DNA of 64,000 bases. It comes from Candidatus Heimdallarchaeota archaeon (GTDB lineage Archaea > Asgardarchaeota > Heimdallarchaeia > JABLTI01). Every line of letters starts with the position of its first letter. The stretch's first letter is position 1. This document shows, in pieces, positions 33,225 to 63,818 of this stretch. Location of the stretch: contig DXJV01000084.1 in NCBI GenBank assembly GCA_019056785.1, positions 1,489-65,488 of the forward strand. Reading direction: 5' to 3'. The position numbers and the translations under genes were made by a program. The notes under the pieces are model-generated. The model was not told the origin of the DNA. It ran no database searches and saw only the letters and a list, made by a program, of their open reading frames with translations.

Positions 33225-33944
33225 TTGAGCCATAAACGAGTTAGAGATCCAAGATTTTACATTGAATACGAATATGATGCAGAAACGAAAGATAAAATCG
33301 AAGATTTATTAACTTTATATTCTACACTTGAAGAGATTCTAACAAAAGCAATTGCATTATTGCATGAACAGCATTTTGGTTCAATCACAAAACGAACTTT
33401 GCCACCGGCCTTTTCACGAACCTTTTCCGCAACCGATGCGATTGCGGACAAGAAATTAGATGAACTTTACCGATTTATCCAAGAAATGAAAGAACAGTTC
33501 CCAAAAGTTGTCCAAGCAAGTAACCAGAAAGAAGTTGACGCTTCAGAGCAAAAGCAGCTAATCCAATTCTCAGAAGAAGCGAATAAGAGGATCATGAAAA
33601 AAATCGACGAGTTAGGAATGCGTTTTAGTAAGATCATCTCAGAGGCAGACCAATCAACAGGAAAGAAAGCAGTCACGGCTGAAATGAGCAAAGAAGAAGT
33701 GTTACAATTAATAAAACGAATTGACAAATTAGAATCAAAACTAACAAAAGCTATTTCTCAGTCTAGAGTAGCAGGACCAATAAGAGGGACTAGCAGAGGA
33801 CCTTTACGAGATCTGGGCGAACCACCAAAAATCGCCGAAATTAAAAAGATTGAAGGACGACCACCAGAGCCGGAGGAACGACCACTTTTAGATGATGTCC
33901 TTGATACGGTAATAGTTTCTGTTGAAAGTAATAAGACTAATTAA
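33225..33944 (+). CDS. hypothetical coiled-coil protein with a Pro/Arg-rich C-terminal region
   Basis: Heptad-like helical stretches (KKLDELYRFIQEMKEQ, LQLIKRIDKLESKLTKA) and PIRGTSRGPLRDLGEPPK..RPPEPEERPLLDDVL. TTG start. Confidence 0.45.
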   Translation: MSHKRVRDPRFYIEYEYDAETKDKIEDLLTLYSTLEEILTKAIALLHEQHFGSITKRTLPPAFSRTFSATDAIADKKLDELYRFIQEMKEQFPKVVQASNQKEVDASEQKQLIQFSEEANKRIMKKIDELGMRFSKIISEADQSTGKKAVTAEMSKEEVLQLIKRIDKLESKLTKAISQSRVAGPIRGTSRGPLRDLGEPPKIAEIKKIEGRPPEPEERPLLDDVLDTVIVSVESNKTN

Positions 33945-34816
33945 AAGAGCGACTCGAGTTCAGGCCAGTAAGAAGCATAGGCTTTATCATTTAACAAACT
34001 CTTTTTCAATGATTCTGCTATTTTGTGATCAACATCATAAAGAATACGACAAATAGCAATGCATGCTTCAATATGATTTTCTTTTTTCAGCTTTCGAAAA
34101 GCATCACGTAAAACATTTCCGGCAGTTTTTTTGTTTAAAATTTTTGACAAAGCCCAGGCAGCATCCTTTGTTTCATCAGGCTTTAGGAGGGCCTTCTTCA
34201 AGAGCGGAGCTGCTGATGCTGCTTGTAAGCAACCCAAGGCATAGGCAGCATTTTTTCGAACCGCTAAATGAGGATCTGTTAGAGCTTCTTGTAGAGGAGC
34301 AATAGCTCTCTTATCATGGATCTCACCTAATGCCCAAGCGGCCATTTCTCGAGTATTGTAGTTTTCGTCACGCAAAAGAGCATCGATGAGTGGTCGAACA
34401 GCTTTCCTTCGCCGGCTTTTTCCGAGGGCGAATGCAGCATTTTGCCGCACGAGATAATGATCGTCTGCTAATGCCTCAATTAAAGGGAGTATATCGAAAT
34501 TGAATTTTGTAAGAAAAGCCAAAGCATAGGCAGCTTCTGCACGAACTTCAGGGCTAGGGTCTTTCCTTAATACTTTCAAAAGTGGGGGAATACTCCTGCG
34601 ATTTTTAATCTCTTTTAAAGCACCGGCAGCAGCACGACGCAAATTTTCATCCTTTGAAGATAAAACATTAATTAAAGGGGTCACAGCCCGGTCGTTTCCC
34701 CATTCACCAAGAATAGTAGCTGCTTGAATGCGGATTTTGGGGTCCTCAGATTGAAGATCACGGATATACTCTGACAAACTTTTTTCAAATTGAGTCATAA
34801 AACCCCACCTGACCAT
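33941..34816 (-). CDS. HEAT-repeat (PBS-lyase type) protein
   Basis: At least six repeats of the form DxxVRxxAAxALGxxxxxxAVxPLIxxL. Confidence 0.85.
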   Translation of the reverse strand: MVRWGFMTQFEKSLSEYIRDLQSEDPKIRIQAATILGEWGNDRAVTPLINVLSSKDENLRRAAAGALKEIKNRRSIPPLLKVLRKDPSPEVRAEAAYALAFLTKFNFDILPLIEALADDHYLVRQNAAFALGKSRRRKAVRPLIDALLRDENYNTREMAAWALGEIHDKRAIAPLQEALTDPHLAVRKNAAYALGCLQAASAAPLLKKALLKPDETKDAAWALSKILNKKTAGNVLRDAFRKLKKENHIEACIAICRILYDVDHKIAESLKKSLLNDKAYASYWPELESLF

Positions 34817-37341: not shown

Positions 37342-38049
37342 TCAAGCTTTCAATATTTCATCAATATCTTTCTGACTTAGAATCTGAACTTTGCCATCCT
37401 TTGTTTCCACGATGGCCATTTCAACAGTAATGGAATTTTGATCCTCTTCAAGTGAGGATTTCAAGGCGTCAATAGCTAATTTCATCGCGGCTTTCTTCGC
37501 AAGTGATTTCTTGTATCCTTTCTTTAAGACTTCCTTTGCTGCGCCTTCATTAGCACCTATGGCCGTCGCCAAACAGCTGAAAATCGCCCCTCCTGGATCG
37601 ATGAAATAGAGAGAGGTTTCTTTTTCATAGACACTTCCAAACAGAACAGCGATACCAAAAGGTCGCACTCCACCATATTGCGTGAACGATTGTAAATAGT
37701 CGCCAATTTTTTCCGAAAGCACTTCTGGATCAATTACTTCTCCGTAAGTAATCCGTTCGATTTGTGCTTCTATACGTGCTCGTTGTAGAAGTGCCCGCCC
37801 ATCAGCAGAATAGCCCGAAAAGGTAGAAGCAATGTGGTCATCGATTTTGAAGACTTTATCAGCAGATTCTATTAACTCAAAGGAACGTTTTTGCCCTGCT
37901 AAGATAACACATGTTTCAGTTTTAAGACCGACAGCGGTGCTACCCATTTTTACGGCTTCTCGCGCATATTCGACTTGAATGATTCGTCCATCAGGCGAGA
38001 AAATAACAGTCGCTTTATCATATCCAAATTGACTTGGTTGTGAAAACAT
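37342..38049 (-). CDS. psmA: proteasome alpha subunit
   Basis: YDKATVIFSPDGRIIQVEYA. Starts 1 nt after the psmB stop. Confidence 0.95.
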   Translation of the reverse strand: MFSQPSQFGYDKATVIFSPDGRIIQVEYAREAVKMGSTAVGLKTETCVILAGQKRSFELIESADKVFKIDDHIASTFSGYSADGRALLQRARIEAQIERITYGEVIDPEVLSEKIGDYLQSFTQYGGVRPFGIAVLFGSVYEKETSLYFIDPGGAIFSCLATAIGANEGAAKEVLKKGYKKSLAKKAAMKLAIDALKSSLEEDQNSITVEMAIVETKDGKVQILSQKDIDEILKA

Positions 38050-52913: not shown

Positions 52914-53699
52914 TTAAACCTTCGACATTCTTGCGATGATTTCATCAACTGCAGCAATTAAACCATCAATATTTCGCGACTCGAGTTCTTTTATTTTTGC
53001 ACGATATTCTTTCTCAGTGAATTCACCAACAGAATATCTTGCAAAGTATTCTTCTTTTTGTGAGGAGATCTCTTCTTTTTGATCAATCAAGTTACGGCGA
53101 TATTGTTTTAGCCGAGCTTCTTCATCATCAACTTTTGCTTTTGTCGCTCGTTCTTTTTCTTTGTATTCTTTCTTTAAGCGGTCATAAGTGGATTCTTGGA
53201 TACGTCCTTCTTTGAAGATTTCCTCGAGCTTTTCTTGGCGTTCGCGCATTTCCACTACTTCCTGCACTAGATTTAAGAGCTCAAGAGACGACATTACTTT
53301 TCGTTTCTCATTAATATCTTTCTCGAGATCTGCGATGGAGTTATTTATTCTTTTAAGCTCACTATTATATTCTTTTTCCGAAATGGCTTCCTCAACCCGG
53401 AATCTTATTTCCAGGTTGTCTTTTTCTTTCTTTAATTCCTCAATTTTCTTTTGGAGAGGGATAATTTCAGCCAATTTCAACAACGAATCTTCTTCTTCTT
53501 TTGTTAGTTCTACTTTCACGGGCGCTAGTTCTGGAGCATATTCTTCTACTGCTTCATAATCACGAACCCTTTCAGCATCATGTTTTGTACTAGTCTGGCT
53601 GTCTTTTATTAACTTGAACCCGCAAGACCGACAAAATTTTGCACCTGGCAATGCACGTGCACCACATCTTGGACAATATTTTACCATTTTTGTTACCAT
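52914..53699 (-). CDS. zinc-ribbon plus long coiled-coil protein with three SHOCT-like (E/G)x(I/F)xExxY motifs
   Basis: MVKYCPRCGARALPGAKFCRSCG, then a K/E-rich coiled coil containing EAISEKEYNSELKRI, GRIQESTYDRLKKEY and GEFTEKEYRAKIKEL. The ORF opens at GTG 53738; ATGs at 53699 and 53687. Confidence 0.6.
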   Translation of the reverse strand: MVTKMVKYCPRCGARALPGAKFCRSCGFKLIKDSQTSTKHDAERVRDYEAVEEYAPELAPVKVELTKEEEDSLLKLAEIIPLQKKIEELKKEKDNLEIRFRVEEAISEKEYNSELKRINNSIADLEKDINEKRKVMSSLELLNLVQEVVEMRERQEKLEEIFKEGRIQESTYDRLKKEYKEKERATKAKVDDEEARLKQYRRNLIDQKEEISSQKEEYFARYSVGEFTEKEYRAKIKELESRNIDGLIAAVDEIIARMSKV

Positions 53700-53978
53700 C
53701 CTTTCAATTTTCAGTATATCAATAAGAATAACAAACACTTATTTATTATTATTTTAACGTTCTTTTTTAGAAAGAACAAATAAAAAGTGAATACATAAAG
53801 CAAAAAATTTAGGAAACCAAAAGTTAAAAAATAAAACAATTAATTAATAAATAAGCTTTAAAGCTAAACGAAAGGCTAATACTACCACAACATAATGCTA
53901 ATAAATCAAATGTTAAAACTAAAGCTTACAAAAAGGATAGAGTTGAACAATCCAAACGGTTAAATAGAGAAATGTGGA

Positions 53979-55778
53979 ATGGCTGAAAAGAAGGTAACTG
54001 AAAAGTCATCTGCTTCCTTGAATGGAGAGTCGGATTTAGAAGGCAAGATGATAATAGATTCGACAGGCGCTACGGTGGGGAAGTGTAAGGCTGTTGAAAT
54101 TGACGAAAAGGGGCAAATCGGGCTGGTTTTTGAAGTTGAGATTAATGGCAAAACAGTTGTCCCGGTAAAAACAATTCCCTATAGTGCTATTGGAAAAATC
54201 ACAGACGTTATCGAATTACGAACACCCCTAAATATCAAAATTGCTCATTCCGCTGCGGAATTGAAAGGTGAAACAACAATTAAGGCAGACAAGAAAGAAC
54301 AGTCTAAACCGAAGGAAGAGATAGTCATTAAAAGTGCCACAGAAGAAGTAGAGAAAGAAAAGATAAAAGAACTGGAAATTAAAGACTCGAGTGAAGATCA
54401 CCCATTAGAAGTATCGGTCAATGAAACAGAAACAAAAGTAGAAACGCCACAAGCTGACCCAACAGAACAATTGTCAAAAGCATTAGAAGGGCTCCATGAG
54501 ACAGAGGAAGAAACCGAGGAAACAAAGGAACTAGAAGTAACCACACAACCAAAGGAGGAAGAGAAAGGCGAAAAATTCACCTTACCATTGGTAAACCAGC
54601 TGATGGAAGGATTAGAAGAATCAATTAAAAAATTGGACAAACTTTTCAACTTGCTATCAAATGGCACACCAGAAGAGAAAATCGAGACGATAAAAGCACT
54701 AACAAGTTTAGCAGAACTATCTCCAGAATTGGGGCTAAGCTTATTACCAAAAATGATGCAGCTTAGTGATGAACAGCACCAAGAAGTTCGGTTAGCAGTC
54801 GCACAAGAATTGCAAGTGTTGGCTGAAAAACAGCCACAATTATTTAGTGGTTATTTTCTCGAGATATTTGAAAACATCTATGATGAACCCATCGAAGCTA
54901 TTCGAGAACATCTAATCAAGATTTTATATAATATTGCAATGAAAAAGCCAGAAATTGCATCTGAAGGACTAGAGCAATTTTTTGAAGAAGTAATGGTCGG
55001 AAAAAGAGTCCCAGAAGTCCCAGCAAAAGTCATTCATGACGCCACCTTAAAAGTGGTCTCCGGAAACTTCCAACTGGCACGAATCGCCATTAAGGTCAGG
55101 TTAAAATTCATTGCTAAAGGAGGGAAACTTGCAAGCCGGTGTGCAGAAGAACTCGAAGATTATAACGCCACGCTTATTGGACTTGCAATTATTGAATCGT
55201 TCACTTTTGAAGAAGCTGAAAAACTCGTAAATAGTTCTATATTTAAAAAACTCGGACCGATTTTCGTTGAAGTAATTCAGAAGATGATCAGTGCCTACAA
55301 AGAAGGGTCATTAAAACAGTTAATTGAAGTTGTGGATACAAAAATTGAAATCCCAACAACAGTTATAGAACGCTTCTATGAGATAAAGATCAATAAAGCA
55401 CTGGAAGGGATTAAGAATATCCCAATCGACATTTTATTAAATAATAAAATTATTACATCTGAAGAAGCTGAACAAATAATTTACCGCTTAATAGTGCAGA
55501 AGAAAATCAATGCAGCCATTACCATGAACAATGGAAAAACATTCATCACTTCTTTAGATGAGGTAATAAATGGAACTAAGAAAGAACAGCAAAAAAGTAC
55601 GGCGACAAAAGAGAAGGCAAAAAGCACCAAGAAAACAACGACACGAAAAAGTACAACTAAAAAAACGTCACCTTCAACCAGTAAAACAAAGACCCAAAAA
55701 AGCACAACTGAGAAAAAAACAACAGAAACAAAAAAACAAAAAGAACAAGAAAGTAAAAGAACAAAAACATCTGAATAG
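53979..55778 (+). CDS. PRC-barrel domain protein with an acidic linker, HEAT/PCI-like helical repeats, a winged-helix-like segment and a Lys/Thr-rich basic tail
   Basis: PRC-barrel pattern LEGKMIIDSTGATVGKCKAVEIDEKGQIGLVFEVEINGKTVVPVKTIPYSAIGKITDVIEL. Helical repeats (EEKIETIKALTSLAELSPELGLSLLPKMMQL..EVRLAVAQEL). Winged-helix-like ITSEEAEQIIYRLIVQKKINAAITMNNGKTFITS. The tail runs 55572..55778. Confidence 0.6.
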   Translation: MAEKKVTEKSSASLNGESDLEGKMIIDSTGATVGKCKAVEIDEKGQIGLVFEVEINGKTVVPVKTIPYSAIGKITDVIELRTPLNIKIAHSAAELKGETTIKADKKEQSKPKEEIVIKSATEEVEKEKIKELEIKDSSEDHPLEVSVNETETKVETPQADPTEQLSKALEGLHETEEETEETKELEVTTQPKEEEKGEKFTLPLVNQLMEGLEESIKKLDKLFNLLSNGTPEEKIETIKALTSLAELSPELGLSLLPKMMQLSDEQHQEVRLAVAQELQVLAEKQPQLFSGYFLEIFENIYDEPIEAIREHLIKILYNIAMKKPEIASEGLEQFFEEVMVGKRVPEVPAKVIHDATLKVVSGNFQLARIAIKVRLKFIAKGGKLASRCAEELEDYNATLIGLAIIESFTFEEAEKLVNSSIFKKLGPIFVEVIQKMISAYKEGSLKQLIEVVDTKIEIPTTVIERFYEIKINKALEGIKNIPIDILLNNKIITSEEAEQIIYRLIVQKKINAAITMNNGKTFITSLDEVINGTKKEQQKSTATKEKAKSTKKTTTRKSTTKKTSPSTSKTKTQKSTTEKKTTETKKQKEQESKRTKTSE

Positions 55779-55894
55779 TGCACGACCCTCTAACAAAAAA
55801 CACAAGCATACTTTTAAAAATCATTTCTAGCGAAAAACACTTAAATACAAAAGAAATGTCTTGAAACCCATTCTAAAAATTGGAGAAAACAGAA

Positions 55895-56056
55895 ATGCCC
55901 ATTGCTGACCCTGAGAAACGAGAAATTGCTCGAAGAAAACTACTTGATGTCCAAATTTGTAGAAAATGTTATGCACGAAATGCCTTACGAGCAAAGAAAT
56001 GTAGAAAATGTGGTTCCACGAGATTACGCTTAAAGAATCGTGAAAGTAAAGGATGA
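55895..56056 (+). CDS. rpl40e: ribosomal protein eL40 (L40e), 53 aa, no ubiquitin moiety (below the ORF-track cutoff)
   Basis: Translates to MPIADPEKREIARRKLLDVQICRKCYARNALRAKKCRKCGSTRLRLKNRESKG. Confidence 0.85.
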   Translation: MPIADPEKREIARRKLLDVQICRKCYARNALRAKKCRKCGSTRLRLKNRESKG

Positions 56057-56172: not shown

Positions 56173-56279
56173 TGGTGGGCGGAGCCGGATTCGAACCGGC
56201 GATTTGCGGTTGCTGAATACTTTTCAAGCAAGATCCGCGACGTGAACGCAGCATCATAACCAGGCTAGATCATCCGCCC
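56173..56279 (-). tRNA. tRNA-Val (anticodon CAC) with a 29-nt non-canonical intron in the variable region (predicted 56204..56232) and an encoded CCA
   Basis: Hand-folded: acceptor GGGCGGA/TCCGCCC; D arm ATCT-AGCCTGGTTA-TGAT; anticodon arm CTGCG-TTCACGT-CGCGG; T arm GCCGG-TTCGAAT-CCGGC; A73; CCA. 34 nt lie between the anticodon stem and the T stem where about 5 are expected. Confidence 0.75.
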
Positions 56280-56388: not shown

Positions 56389-58071
56389 TTATGATAATTC
56401 GTCAGATTTATCTTCCTTCTTTACAACAAAATCCGGTTGACTTACTTTTGAGCTCTCAACTGTGCCATCATCAAGGATAGTCCACCCAGCGGATGTTTTG
56501 AGACTTTTGACAGATTCGAGGAATTGTCCTACAAGTTTGGCATATTTTTCTTGTTCTGCTGTTTGATGATAGATAATTGTAATGTCTTCTTTTAGGTTGG
56601 TTCTAGTACTTCGAATGCGTCCCATTGCTTGCTCTCGTGCTTCAATTGAAAGCGTAGTGCCAAAATGAATACAGCGGTCAGCCTCAGGTAAATCTGTCCC
56701 TTTTCTAATAAGGCGCTCGCTGGCTAACAAAACTTTCACTTCCCCACTCTTAAAGCGTTTTAATTGCATGTTCTGAGATTCACCACTCATTCTCCCATGA
56801 ACGAAAATATTTGGAATGCCTTCTCGTTCTAACAGGCGGGAAAGATGTTTGGTCATCTCAACAAACCGTAAAAAGACAATTACTGAGCTGTTCTCCTCAT
56901 TCACAAGCCTTTTCACTATTTGAATCAACCGCAAATCTTTTGGTGAGATTTTGCTTTCTTTGCCTTCTCGTGAAGCCATTTCGACAAGTTCTCGGATTTC
57001 TTGCCATTCAGGAGAATTTAATAGTAGAGAATTTTTAACCTCACGAACGAAATTAGCAAACTTAGCAAAAGTATGCTCAAAAAGGAATTGCCGAGCAACG
57101 ATAAGGTCAAGATATGCGCCAGCATTTATTATAAGGTTTTTGAAAAATGCTTCACTCCCCCTTTCGAAATTCGTGTCTTGATAGGAGCGATTCATCACTT
57201 CGTTGGCAAAAAGGAGAGTTCTATTTGGAGCCAGCTGTTGTCCACCTGAAATTCTTCGATAGCCATTCATCAATACCTTTTCAGTTTGGGAGCGTAGACC
57301 CATTAATAACTCATCCATTTCTTTCCGCATGTCATCAAAGACATAATAGCGTTTCAATTTAATAGCCGGTGCATGATCTTGAAAATCTTCGCCCTTAGGA
57401 TAAATAAATTCCACATTGTCCGACCCCCCGAACATTCGCTCTATGAAAGATAATTTTCCTTTTTGAAGGATAGAGGCAGTTAATCCTAAAAATTTAATCT
57501 CATTCTTAGCAAGTAAACGATCGATCAAAGGAGCAAAACGCTTATCCATGCGAAAGCCACCACCTTTTACTGTTTGAGCTGTGACATCCAAAATCTCATC
57601 TATAACAACAAATACAACTTTATTTAGATCCTCAGGCTGAACACGACGTTGTGACGGTGTACGAGCAAAAAGAGAATTCATTAAAAGAGCAGGGGTGGCA
57701 AAAATAAAGCGAGAAAGTGCAAAATGCTTTTGGATGATCGAAGGTGGCAAACTTGTCCCTTCTGGGAGGAGAAAAGAACTACCATAGGGGGAGAAGTCAG
57801 ATTGACAGACATCATGAAGTTGATGCTTTAATTTCCGGTCCGGCGAAAGGAAGAGAACTTTTCCTTCTTCAGAGAGCAACCCCTTCTTGAAAAGTTCTAC
57901 CACAACCATTAAAGCGACATTTGTTTTCCCCATCCCTGTAGGGAGCAAAAGAACAGATGCGCGTTTATTTTTTTCAAACAAACTTTGCAGGATCTTCTCT
58001 GCAGCATTAATCTGGTATTTTCTGGGGGAAAAAGACAGTTCCTCGATGCATTCCAAAGTCAAGCTAAACAC
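56389..58071 (-). CDS. SF2 helicase, Hef/FANCM/RIG-I-like (helicase domains only, no nuclease domain)
   Basis: Motif I LPTGMGKTN, motif II VVIDEILD, motif III GLTAS, motifs V/VI LIRKGTDLPE and QAMGRIRS. Confidence 0.8.
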   Translation of the reverse strand: MFSLTLECIEELSFSPRKYQINAAEKILQSLFEKNKRASVLLLPTGMGKTNVALMVVVELFKKGLLSEEGKVLFLSPDRKLKHQLHDVCQSDFSPYGSSFLLPEGTSLPPSIIQKHFALSRFIFATPALLMNSLFARTPSQRRVQPEDLNKVVFVVIDEILDVTAQTVKGGGFRMDKRFAPLIDRLLAKNEIKFLGLTASILQKGKLSFIERMFGGSDNVEFIYPKGEDFQDHAPAIKLKRYYVFDDMRKEMDELLMGLRSQTEKVLMNGYRRISGGQQLAPNRTLLFANEVMNRSYQDTNFERGSEAFFKNLIINAGAYLDLIVARQFLFEHTFAKFANFVREVKNSLLLNSPEWQEIRELVEMASREGKESKISPKDLRLIQIVKRLVNEENSSVIVFLRFVEMTKHLSRLLEREGIPNIFVHGRMSGESQNMQLKRFKSGEVKVLLASERLIRKGTDLPEADRCIHFGTTLSIEAREQAMGRIRSTRTNLKEDITIIYHQTAEQEKYAKLVGQFLESVKSLKTSAGWTILDDGTVESSKVSQPDFVVKKEDKSDELS

Positions 58072-62747: not shown

Positions 62748-63818
62748 TCATTTTTTCGATCCGAGTTGTGACAGAGCGATTTTTTCAAATCCACGAGCAT
62801 TCGCTAACACAGGGTCTTCTGGGACAATAACCTCATCTGGTGATTTAACAATATTCTGCTCAGTCAAAATGGATTTCATGTTCTCTCCAAAGACTTCTGC
62901 CCCTCCGCCGGTGAGAATAACTTTTTCAATCCACGCATCTGGTGGAAGGGTTCCCAAGAGGGTTGACAGCTCATCTACAATTATATTGGAAATGGTTTTC
63001 ACATAATAACTCAATGTCTCTGAAATGTCAAACTGTTCACCAGCAATCATCACGTTTGTTCGGCCCATTTCGATTGACTTTATCAACTCAAATGGCCGCA
63101 TGATCTTACCCGTTTGTTGATTAAGATTGCTAGCAATTCGTTCTGCTAGGGTAGTTATAGATTCCTGTACACTACCGCTTGCAGTTCGCATTAAGCGCCC
63201 TTCATAAACAGTGAGAATATTCGTTGCACCAGCACCTATATCAATCACTACGGCATCAACTGCCCTGTTTTCACCAGAGGTTTTCAAGATTTCGTAATAT
63301 GAACCATAACATACTGGCATAACCAAACATTTGTCGATTTTCAAATGAATTTGTTTTTCTTCGCCGGTAGCGTCATTTGCAACATTGATAGTCATCGCAC
63401 CTTTGAGTCCCGAACTAAGATTGGTCATTTCTTCTTGAGAGCTTGCAACCGGCACTCCTGTTGCAATAACCAAATTTGCATAATCACTTTCAACAAAATT
63501 GGAGAGAGCGGCCTTTATAGCAATAATTGCATCTTTTAGGCTTTTCATTTTACCTTTTTCAGCAAGTGGGCGTTTAATTTCACTCTGTAATCGCGCCAGT
63601 TCTCCCACAAAAAATTTCCGGCCTTCATCCGTATGAAGAACAAGATTGTTGATCCAACTTTTGTCTGTCCCCAATCCTTTCCAGCCGGGATTTGGATCGC
63701 CAATTAAACTTGGGATTTTCACTATTTTTTGACCATTTTTTCCCACGAGCTTGGTAAGACTCGTCCCGAGATCGATACCAATGGCCAATGTATCAGTTTT
63801 TGATGTCTTTTTAGACAA
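62748..63818 (-). CDS. actin-fold ATPase, ParM/Ta0583-like
   Basis: Phosphate-1 LAIGIDLGTSLTK, phosphate-2 AVVIDIGAGATNI, adenosine motif KVILTGGGAEVF, and C-terminal NARGF. TTG start. Confidence 0.75.
   Translation of the reverse strand: MSKKTSKTDTLAIGIDLGTSLTKLVGKNGQKIVKIPSLIGDPNPGWKGLGTDKSWINNLVLHTDEGRKFFVGELARLQSEIKRPLAEKGKMKSLKDAIIAIKAALSNFVESDYANLVIATGVPVASSQEEMTNLSSGLKGAMTINVANDATGEEKQIHLKIDKCLVMPVCYGSYYEILKTSGENRAVDAVVIDIGAGATNILTVYEGRLMRTASGSVQESITTLAERIASNLNQQTGKIMRPFELIKSIEMGRTNVMIAGEQFDISETLSYYVKTISNIIVDELSTLLGTLPPDAWIEKVILTGGGAEVFGENMKSILTEQNIVKSPDEVIVPEDPVLANARGFEKIALSQLGSKK

Follow-up and report, generated by a model that had tools for sequence, protein, structure and literature searches.

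What do two divergently transcribed, uncharacterised genes of a Heimdallarchaeota genome encode, and do their products belong to one system? The genes, here called A and B, occupy positions 52,914 to 55,778 of a 64,000-nucleotide stretch (the window) of contig DXJV01000084.1 (positions 1,489 to 65,488, forward strand; assembly GCA_019056785.1), and both proteins are recorded as hypothetical proteins of a Candidatus Heimdallarchaeota metagenome-assembled genome (MAG). An earlier description made from the DNA letters alone (the sequence-only reading) had proposed a candidate division or cytoskeletal module. We find that the helical part of A is very probably a coiled-coil domain of the type found in CdvA, that B begins with a PRC barrel, the other domain of CdvA, and that the two genes are juxtaposed in nearly all related loci. 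Together, A and B may form a CdvA-like scaffold built from two proteins, a reading to which we give slightly less than even confidence.

52914..53687, minus strand: gene A (257 residues; zinc ribbon and CdvA-like coiled coil; open reading frame (ORF) with its start set by orthologues).
53688..53978, unstranded: divergent AT-rich spacer (291 bp, GC content about 0.27-0.28; three conserved blocks).
53979..55778, plus strand: gene B (599 residues; PRC barrel, linker, HEAT/PCI-like scaffold and basic tail; ORF with its architecture kept in the family alignment).

Both divergent ORFs of the sequence-only reading are confirmed by the ORF list and conserved in relatives. The ORF of A as called mechanically spans 52914..53738 (minus strand) and begins at a GTG at 53738; because 26 of 26 aligned orthologues begin with MVKYC or MVKFC, translation almost certainly begins with the ATG at 53687, which gives 257 residues. 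With this correction the spacer, earlier put at 240-280 bp, measures 291 bp, and its AT-richness holds. A word-indexed search of 5.8 billion proteins returned 46 relatives of A (59-86% identity, length about 257 residues) and 70 of B (46-78% identity, about 600 residues), which argues that A and B are genuine conserved genes, not chance ORFs. All relatives come from Heimdallarchaeota- or Asgard-labelled or from unlabelled metagenome assemblies, and the source organism is a heimdallarchaeon, not a lokiarchaeon. In the same index, a 90-residue stretch of S. islandicus CdvA, taken from the PDB alignment described below, drew no candidate although CdvA is expected there, so negatives of this index call for caution with short or low-complexity coiled-coil queries. 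A scan of genome representatives with B relied on exact peptide patterns, and its eight loci therefore set no limit on phyletic spread. Scanning metagenomes with the A profile gave mainly unrelated zinc ribbons and seven true loci, one of them a new A/B pair.

Protein A divides into four regions.

53604..53687, minus strand: residues 1-28, C4 zinc ribbon (Cys5, Cys8, Cys19, Cys22; Pfam Zn_Ribbon_1).
53514..53603, minus strand: residues 29-58, variable acidic disordered linker (predicted local distance difference test score (pLDDT) <50 at 29-55; column identity 0.27).
53295..53513, minus strand: residues 59-131, extra helical hairpin (helices 63-98 and 104-131) with loop motif 1, EEAISEKEY (AlphaFold2 model; conservation 0.71).
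52917..53294, minus strand: residues 132-257, probable CdvA-like three-helix coiled-coil domain (helices 136-159, 165-219 and 225-256) with loop motifs 2 and 3 (profile, Foldseek, PF18822 and hhalign).

That a zinc ribbon precedes a coiled coil in A, as described earlier, is borne out. The ribbon clears its Pfam cut-off (Zn_Ribbon_1, E 2e-7), its four cysteines are invariant across aligned orthologues and its net charge is +7, while the AlphaFold2 model (pLDDT 79) contains helices at 63-98, 104-131, 136-159, 165-219, 225-236 and 240-256. A PRC barrel is not part of A, and by Pfam and the model the N-terminus is the zinc ribbon instead. Three loop motifs (EAISEKEYNSELKRI, GRIQESTYDRLKKEY and GEFTEKEYRAKIKEL) are present and conserved in orthologues, and each sits exactly on one helix-turn-helix junction of the model.

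Among solved structures, CdvA is the top match of A both by sequence profile and by fold. The A-family profile, searched over all PDB sequences, matched S. islandicus CdvA best (9s9g, E 0.023), with A 149-238 aligning ungapped to CdvA 83-172 (90 residues) and both loop motifs in register; the motifs common to the two proteins are RQxxLEE...I.xS.YD and E(I/L)xExxY. Foldseek placed the A model on CdvA chains with a root-mean-square deviation (rmsd) of 1.7-2.3 Å over 119-125 columns, 18-21% identity and a probability of 0.92-1.00, although the E value of this all-helical match is only about 0.4. PF18822, the CdvA-like coiled-coil domain, is the sole recurrent non-ribbon Pfam family in A orthologues (15 of 27, best E 2.8e-4, all under the 30-bit cut-off), and hhalign of the A domain against a CdvA fragment gave a probability of 69%, for that fragment only. 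In an exhaustive search of 1.84 billion representatives, a hidden Markov model (HMM) of the helical domain recovered only 35 proteins at E ≤ 1e-3. The remote relatives among them stem from Loki/Promethearchaeota, Hermod-, Odin- and Heimdall-group assemblies and mainly combine a zinc ribbon, N- or C-terminal, with a coiled coil that has A's loop motif; PF18822 is their commonest Pfam family (18 of 31, best E 4.4e-6), ahead of zinc ribbons, GvpG and SHOCT. Each of these lines is weak alone and they are stronger combined, making a CdvA-type coiled-coil domain the best-supported and a highly probable assignment for the helical part of A.

The three motifs had been described as SHOCT-like. Their presence, conservation and loop pattern stand, G-x-I-(S/T)-x-x-E-Y being common to the SHOCT, GvpG and CdvA profiles, but the SHOCT family assignment does not, and the motifs are best read as hairpin loops of a CdvA-type domain. 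SHOCT (PF09851) had no match at E ≤ 10 in the window copy and matched 4 of 27 orthologues (best E 0.0026, under the 27-bit cut-off); we rejected the label because these matches are few and weak, and because PF18822 and the CdvA structure fit better.

The zinc ribbon has a likeness of its own. Over 22 residues it shares 50% identity with the ribbon of ribosomal protein L40e, encoded nearby (pairwise E 2e-5), its matches to L40e models are weak (NCBIfam E 2e-4; PDB E 0.09-0.6), and two A relatives carry the JGI label 'ribosomal protein L40E'. The likeness could be generic CxxC...CxxC similarity or could reflect local duplication. An NZF-type ubiquitin-binding finger was considered for the ribbon and rejected, the Foldseek match to the HOIL-1L NZF being too weak (E 3.6, 39 columns); the Trp and the Thr-Phe signature of the NZF consensus are missing.

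Protein B is built from a barrel, a linker, a scaffold and a tail.

54030..54248, plus strand: residues 18-90, PRC barrel (Pfam PRC in 25 of 30 members; six strands).
54450..54494, plus strand: residues 158-172, short helix motif QADxTEQLSKxL within the acidic linker 91-200 (alignment and model).
54579..55352, plus strand: residues 201-458, HEAT-like alpha-solenoid (model, Pfam and profile).
55353..55559, plus strand: residues 459-527, PCI-type winged helix closing the solenoid (Pfam PCI in 30 of 30 members; model).
55560..55775, plus strand: residues 528-599, disordered Lys/Thr/Ser-rich basic tail (alignment, model and composition).

This is the anatomy that the sequence-only reading had given (PRC barrel, acidic linker, HEAT-like repeats, PCI-type winged helix and Lys/Thr tail), and all of it is upheld by family-wide Pfam matches and by an AlphaFold2 model computed from the family alignment (pLDDT 70 on average). 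The window copy itself falls under the Pfam cut-offs, with PRC at 18-79 (E 9e-4), PCI at 472-520 (E 0.0095; 16.6 bits against a gathering cut-off of 22 bits) and HEAT at 220-283 (E 0.2), and precomputed PF01399 matches flag 8 of the 70 relatives. Thirty family members scanned individually against Pfam all matched PCI (best E 7.9e-6), with HEAT_2 in 25, PRC in 25 (best E 3.7e-5) and HEAT in 22. In the model the barrel has six strands (residues 24-80, pLDDT 70-80); of the solved structures, the one closest to it in sequence is MTH1895, a euryarchaeal PRC barrel that stands alone (1pm3, E 0.11). The solenoid spans 202-451 (pLDDT mostly 86-96), and the family profile matches the HEAT repeats of PP2A-A (E 1e-5); the winged helix follows at 460-525 with alpha-beta-alpha-beta-beta topology, and pLDDT across 201-527 is mostly 82-96. 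Conservation is 0.74 in the barrel, 0.69 in the solenoid and 0.70 in the winged helix, compared with 0.13-0.28 in the linkers and 0.32 in the tail.

The fold of the scaffold region leads to eukaryotic complexes. Foldseek of B against the PDB gave 22 matches at E ≤ 1e-3, all of them chains of 26S proteasome/19S lid or COP9 signalosome (CSN) entries (373-440 residues, aligned over about 350 columns); the next matches were Drosophila Rpn6 (3txm) and later ARM/HEAT proteins, AP2 beta and importin alpha among them. Template modelling scores (TM-scores) of 0.18-0.41 and an rmsd of 11-20 Å are poor, and the match is therefore topological (a solenoid with a terminal winged helix) and not a rigid superposition. 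The AlphaFold2 models and Foldseek, checks that the sequence-only reading had suggested, agree with its PRC barrel, PCI and HEAT assignments for B, and Foldseek returns CdvA for A.

The disordered parts of B hold conserved islands. The model is disordered at 87-159 and 171-197, with a helix at 161-173 predicted at low confidence, and the linker motif reaches a column identity of 0.69, against 0.28 and 0.13 in the flanking linker, with Q164, L165 and K167 invariant. A second conserved peptide, KSSASLNGE(S/T)DLEGK, lies in the predicted disordered region before the barrel (window 54000-54029, plus strand). Both peptides look like docking motifs for partners. A MIM1-like reading of the linker motif was considered and dropped, since its leucine spacing does not fit. 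The tail carries a net charge of +15 and 29 Ser/Thr residues and varies in length; two relatives have none of it or no more than a few residues. In the 643-residue orthologue at L021 (GCA_014730365.1, WJIK01000072.1, 3621-5552, minus strand), an acidic and then a basic stretch replace the Lys/Thr tail, and a possible extra small C-terminal module follows (GEIKIPYKGRVYTFEKNISLKALK...).

We judged the pairing of the genes on 15 distinct loci with sufficient flank, drawn from B-anchored and A-anchored loci. In 14 of them A and B lie side by side in divergent orientation. Their starts are 291 bp apart in the window, 448 bp apart at L021 and 300-309 bp apart in the remaining 12. Spacer alignments show three conserved blocks.

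53740-53747, near A: TATTTATT.
53894-53903, about 80 nt upstream of B: AATGCTAATA, invariant.
53967-53974, just before the ATG of B: GAGAA(A/G)TG.

Mean column identity of the spacer is only 68% despite its almost constant length. The block TAACATAATGCTAATA, built around AATGCTAATA, has no more copies elsewhere in the window than expected by chance, and the regulon hint that it had given was dropped; a structured RNA in the spacer was likewise set aside, as Rfam matched nothing there. Downstream of B, the next gene of the conserved neighbourhood begins 101 bp beyond B in the window.

55880..56056, plus strand: ribosomal protein L40e gene (NCBIfam L40e, E 1.7e-18; always downstream of B).

What could such a pair do? 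Each CdvA subunit consists of a PRC barrel together with a coiled coil of three helices; the coiled coils stack head to tail via six hydrophobic residues, and in the filament the PRC barrel of one strand touches the coiled coils of the opposite strand in trans (PMC12818579). By analogy, we tentatively propose that A and B form a two-protein CdvA-like scaffold with the two CdvA domains on separate chains. A would self-associate via its coiled-coil hairpins into dimers or higher polymers, and the barrel of B would dock in trans on the coiled coil of A, as PRC barrels do across CdvA filament strands. This docking is suggested because PRC barrel and coiled coil are fused in CdvA (Rosetta-stone logic), and arCOG05740 likewise has an N-terminal PRC barrel and a coiled coil of unspecified type (PMC10936438 supplement). 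Docked B would decorate the A scaffold with a PCI-like protein-binding platform on a long acidic linker (roughly 110 residues), and the basic tail of B with the basic zinc ribbon of A could hold the assembly on an anionic surface, for example a membrane or nucleic acid. [quoted passage not shown] Since an archaeal genome holds a handful of PRC-barrel genes (bioRxiv 10.1101/2023.03.28.534520), a CdvA-like coiled-coil gene would rarely lie beside one by chance, although this estimate was made after the fact. That both proteins are uncharacterised, and that a link to archaeal division-type scaffolds is reasonable, agrees with the sequence-only reading. Its statement that the architecture matches neither CdvA nor CdpB is only half right: it holds for the single proteins, but CdvA is the top solved-structure match of A and the pair jointly holds both CdvA domains. 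A more elaborate version, a Heimdall-specific system in which the CdvA domains are split and the PRC half has been joined with a full PCI-type solenoid and winged helix, so that A polymerises while B docks and recruits, we consider improbable.

Several observations weigh against a two-chain CdvA-like scaffold. The CdvA matches of A are individually weak (profile E 0.023, Foldseek E 0.4, Pfam below cut-off). In the ungapped HMMER alignment, the CdvA filament-contact residues A90, L94, I100, I149, M153 and I156 correspond to K, I, I, E, A and S in A; these positions are mostly not hydrophobic, and the CdvA-type filament interface is therefore not conserved. In CdvA a flexible peptide at the C-terminus, E3B, attaches to the CdvB winged helix, whereas an E3B-like disordered C-terminal peptide was not found in A, whose model is helical to the end (helix 240-256 of 257 residues). 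On the side of B, the CdvA barrel went undetected when the B-family profile was compared with PDB sequences. The neighbourhood offers no division genes: ESCRT-III, Vps4, FtsZ and SepF were not seen among roughly 34 scanned ORFs of the window, and ESCRT-III/Vps4 were not found in related loci either, where the neighbours of the pair are nadA, nadC, L40e and a helicase. Conserved pairing is itself ambiguous evidence. The whole nadC-nadA-A...L40e block is syntenic in 15 of 15 loci, so the A-B adjacency is no better conserved than that of A and nadA, and adjacency alone proves little. The most divergent A orthologue (59% identity; L020) keeps the order helicase, L40e, A, nadA, nadC without B, and A can therefore exist without an adjacent B. 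The divergent pairing, which the sequence-only reading proposed to check across Asgard genomes, is hence kept in most relatives but is not universal; nadA/nadC and L40e on either side are kept just as well, which makes it weaker evidence than that reading assumed. No PRC barrel was found near remote A relatives on three longer contigs (Hermod, Odin and a Heimdall paralogue), small unannotated ORFs included; two further contigs with remote A relatives were too short to judge.

Two of these loci hold further detail. At L020 (JGI 3300035158, contig Ga0374083_0426500, 5555-6807), L40e is the direct divergent neighbour of A across a 281-bp spacer. Because synteny is kept there without B, either B was inserted in an ancestor of the other lineages or it was lost in the L020 lineage. 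The L020 sequence ahead of L40e partly resembles the conserved sequence ahead of B (TAATCATTGTAAG versus TAATGCTAATATA, plus GAGAAGT before the ATG), and from this resemblance B may have been inserted behind a former L40e promoter. At L019 (GCA_011366245.1, VIKN01000193.1, 4225-5774), a remote A paralogue is divergent to a ribosomal protein gene (Pfam Ribosomal_L16) across a 227-bp spacer; this Heimdall-group MAG also carries the A/B pair. After L020, it is the second instance in which an A-like gene stands back to back with a ribosomal protein gene.

Relative to CdvA (arCOG04054; the division scaffold of Sulfolobus and the TACK archaea; 9s9g), the likeness of the pair lies in the C-terminal 120-odd residues of A, including two loop motifs, and in the PRC barrel, here on B. 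The differences are that CdvA has both domains on one chain, that in A a zinc ribbon and an extra hairpin take the place of the CdvA barrel, that A lacks the terminal peptide and the locus lacks cdvB/cdvC neighbours, and that the barrel of B shows no detectable CdvA sequence likeness and is fused to a 330-residue HEAT/PCI module foreign to CdvA. By its published description, A also resembles arCOG03733, an uncharacterised CdvA-like protein with a proposed division role that combines a zinc ribbon and a coiled coil (Makarova et al. 2024, PMC10936438). It shares with A the N-terminal zinc ribbon, the long coiled-coil region and the CdvA-like domain, and differs in belonging to another phylum and in its usual neighbour, the ribbon-less paralogue arCOG03734, whereas A adjoins the PRC/PCI protein B. 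The CdvA hairpin is related to the ESCRT-I steadiness box (PMC10936438; Lu et al., bioRxiv 10.1101/2023.07.25.550441), and an Asgard orthologous group, cog.004117, is annotated as CdvA (Lu et al., bioRxiv 10.1101/2023.07.25.550441). The steadiness-box/Vps23-core hairpins of ESCRT-I and of Asgard Znr_PH_CC_SB proteins (cog.011556) resemble A in being helical hairpins with a conserved loop, and some of the Asgard type likewise pair zinc ribbons with a coiled coil; A differs in having no UEV or PH domain and in not being encoded with ESCRT genes, and no Vps23_core or Vps28 Pfam match was seen for it.

Three other explanations have to be set beside a joint scaffold. A and B may be functionally independent neighbours, which we consider rather unlikely but still a serious possibility. 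A alone would then act as a zinc-ribbon stalk of CdvA/steadiness-box-like character, similar to arCOG03733 or to Asgard ESCRT-I-like proteins, and B would be a clade-specific adaptor inserted between A and L40e, for example a CdpB-like protein acting with SepF/FtsZ. Retained synteny without B at L020 fits this, as do the remote A relatives that have no PRC-barrel neighbours and the several loci in which other genes lie between B and L40e, so that this interval accepts insertions. CdpB proteins are single-domain and about 80-100 residues long. In the FtsZ/SepF system of Haloferax, CdpB1-3 are the only characterised stand-alone PRC barrels and bind SepF (bioRxiv 10.1101/2023.03.28.534520), and the barrel of B is by sequence closest to a stand-alone one, MTH1895; B differs from them in its 599 residues, with four further regions and the barrel tethered to a HEAT/PCI scaffold. 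Against independence, though not decisively, the inserted gene carries exactly the CdvA domain that A lacks, spacer length (300-309 bp) and motifs are kept in most loci, and A and B each exceed their own linkers in conservation, which suggests constrained partners.

A link to the ribosome or to translation, with the L40e-like ribbon of A and the PRC barrel, PCI-like scaffold and basic tail of B binding ribosomal particles or RNA, is quite unlikely. It would account for L40e standing always just downstream of B, with which it may be co-transcribed, and as the divergent partner of A where B is absent; for the ribbon likeness and the 'L40E' labels; and for the A paralogue that faces a Ribosomal_L16 gene. 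RimM has a PRC barrel and eIF3 has PCI subunits. PRC-barrel genes often lie near translation or RNA-processing genes (bioRxiv 10.1101/2023.03.28.534520). Yet the large conserved part of A is a probable CdvA-type coiled coil, with no known ribosomal role, the ribbon likeness is short and generic (CxxC...CxxC plus basic residues), and the plainly unrelated nadA and nadC share the neighbourhood. Still less probable, and in our view very much so, is that B is an archaeal forerunner of eukaryotic PCI-complex subunits (lid, COP9 signalosome, eIF3) that assembles through its winged helix with PCI/MPN proteins, A being incidental. All 22 Foldseek matches at E ≤ 1e-3 come from proteasome/lid or signalosome entries, Pfam PCI occurs in all 30 members, a proteasome alpha-subunit gene lies 16 kb away, and PCI subunits of the lid and signalosome (Rpn6, 3txm; CSN1/CSN2, 4d10) share with B the alpha-solenoid and terminal winged helix. 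However, this match is one of topology only, given the low TM-scores and high rmsd, and the solenoid of B is HEAT-like by sequence, not TPR-like as in canonical PCI subunits. The C-terminal helix of PCI subunits serves the helical bundle in lid and signalosome assembly, whereas in B only the disordered basic tail follows the winged helix, so B has no such helix. B is also fused to a PRC barrel, has no MPN/JAMM partner gene nearby and belongs to a family confined, in the searches run, to one Heimdall clade. PCI complexes are not known in archaea (Fuchs et al. 2018, PMC6043591).

Around the pair, the window is ordinary housekeeping DNA. Rfam places a tRNA at 56176-56279 (minus strand; 45.8 bits against a cut-off of 29), and because all 71 positions of the model are matched over a span of 104 nt, an archaeal tRNA with an intron is suggested; ARAGORN reports no tRNA there. 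A 560-residue helicase (56389-58071, minus strand) matches the NCBIfam Hef nuclease model (residues 8-472 against positions 9-451 of 781), apparently without the C-terminal nuclease part of Hef, and shares synteny with the pair across the window, L020 and L021. Past endonuclease V and a 1156-residue MMPL-family transporter, 7 kb downstream of the pair, lies the gene for a 356-residue archaeal actin-family protein (62748-63818, minus strand; Pfam MreB-like_C E 6e-15, ALP_N E 2e-14). At 16-20 kb upstream of the pair are a stand-alone 291-residue HEAT-repeat protein (33941-34816, minus strand; HEAT_2 E 2e-52) and the proteasome alpha-subunit gene (37342-38049, minus strand), with no evident link to the HEAT/PCI module of B.

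A is a member of a described but uncharacterised zinc-ribbon/CdvA-like kind. The single domains of B are all known, and their PRC-HEAT-PCI combination is previously undescribed; we found no published description of the PRC-HEAT-PCI-tail architecture or of the A/B pairing, and the accessions of the relatives are absent from the searchable supplements of the most relevant work. The distribution of the CdvA domains over two conserved divergent genes, one of which joins the barrel to a PCI-like scaffold, is thus an undescribed variant and not a new category.

Among archaea, the group that includes this Heimdall clade is the nearest to eukaryotes, and CdvA has so far been treated as a TACK-specific, non-ESCRT scaffold. 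Should A and B not bind each other, the annotation would still be useful, assigning A to the zinc-ribbon/CdvA-like kind and B to a new PRC-HEAT-PCI architecture. Should they bind, they would represent a new way to build a CdvA-like scaffold, from two chains and with an added adaptor platform, and would provide a definite pair that can be cloned to study how scaffolds for division or membrane remodelling are organised in Asgard archaea. If the Heimdall-specific system of an A polymer with docked B were true, improbable as we hold it to be, it would be the first assembly in archaea to be organised around a PCI-like subunit, and it would link the archaeal Cdv/ESCRT-I-type hairpin scaffolds to PCI scaffolds thought to be confined to eukaryotes.

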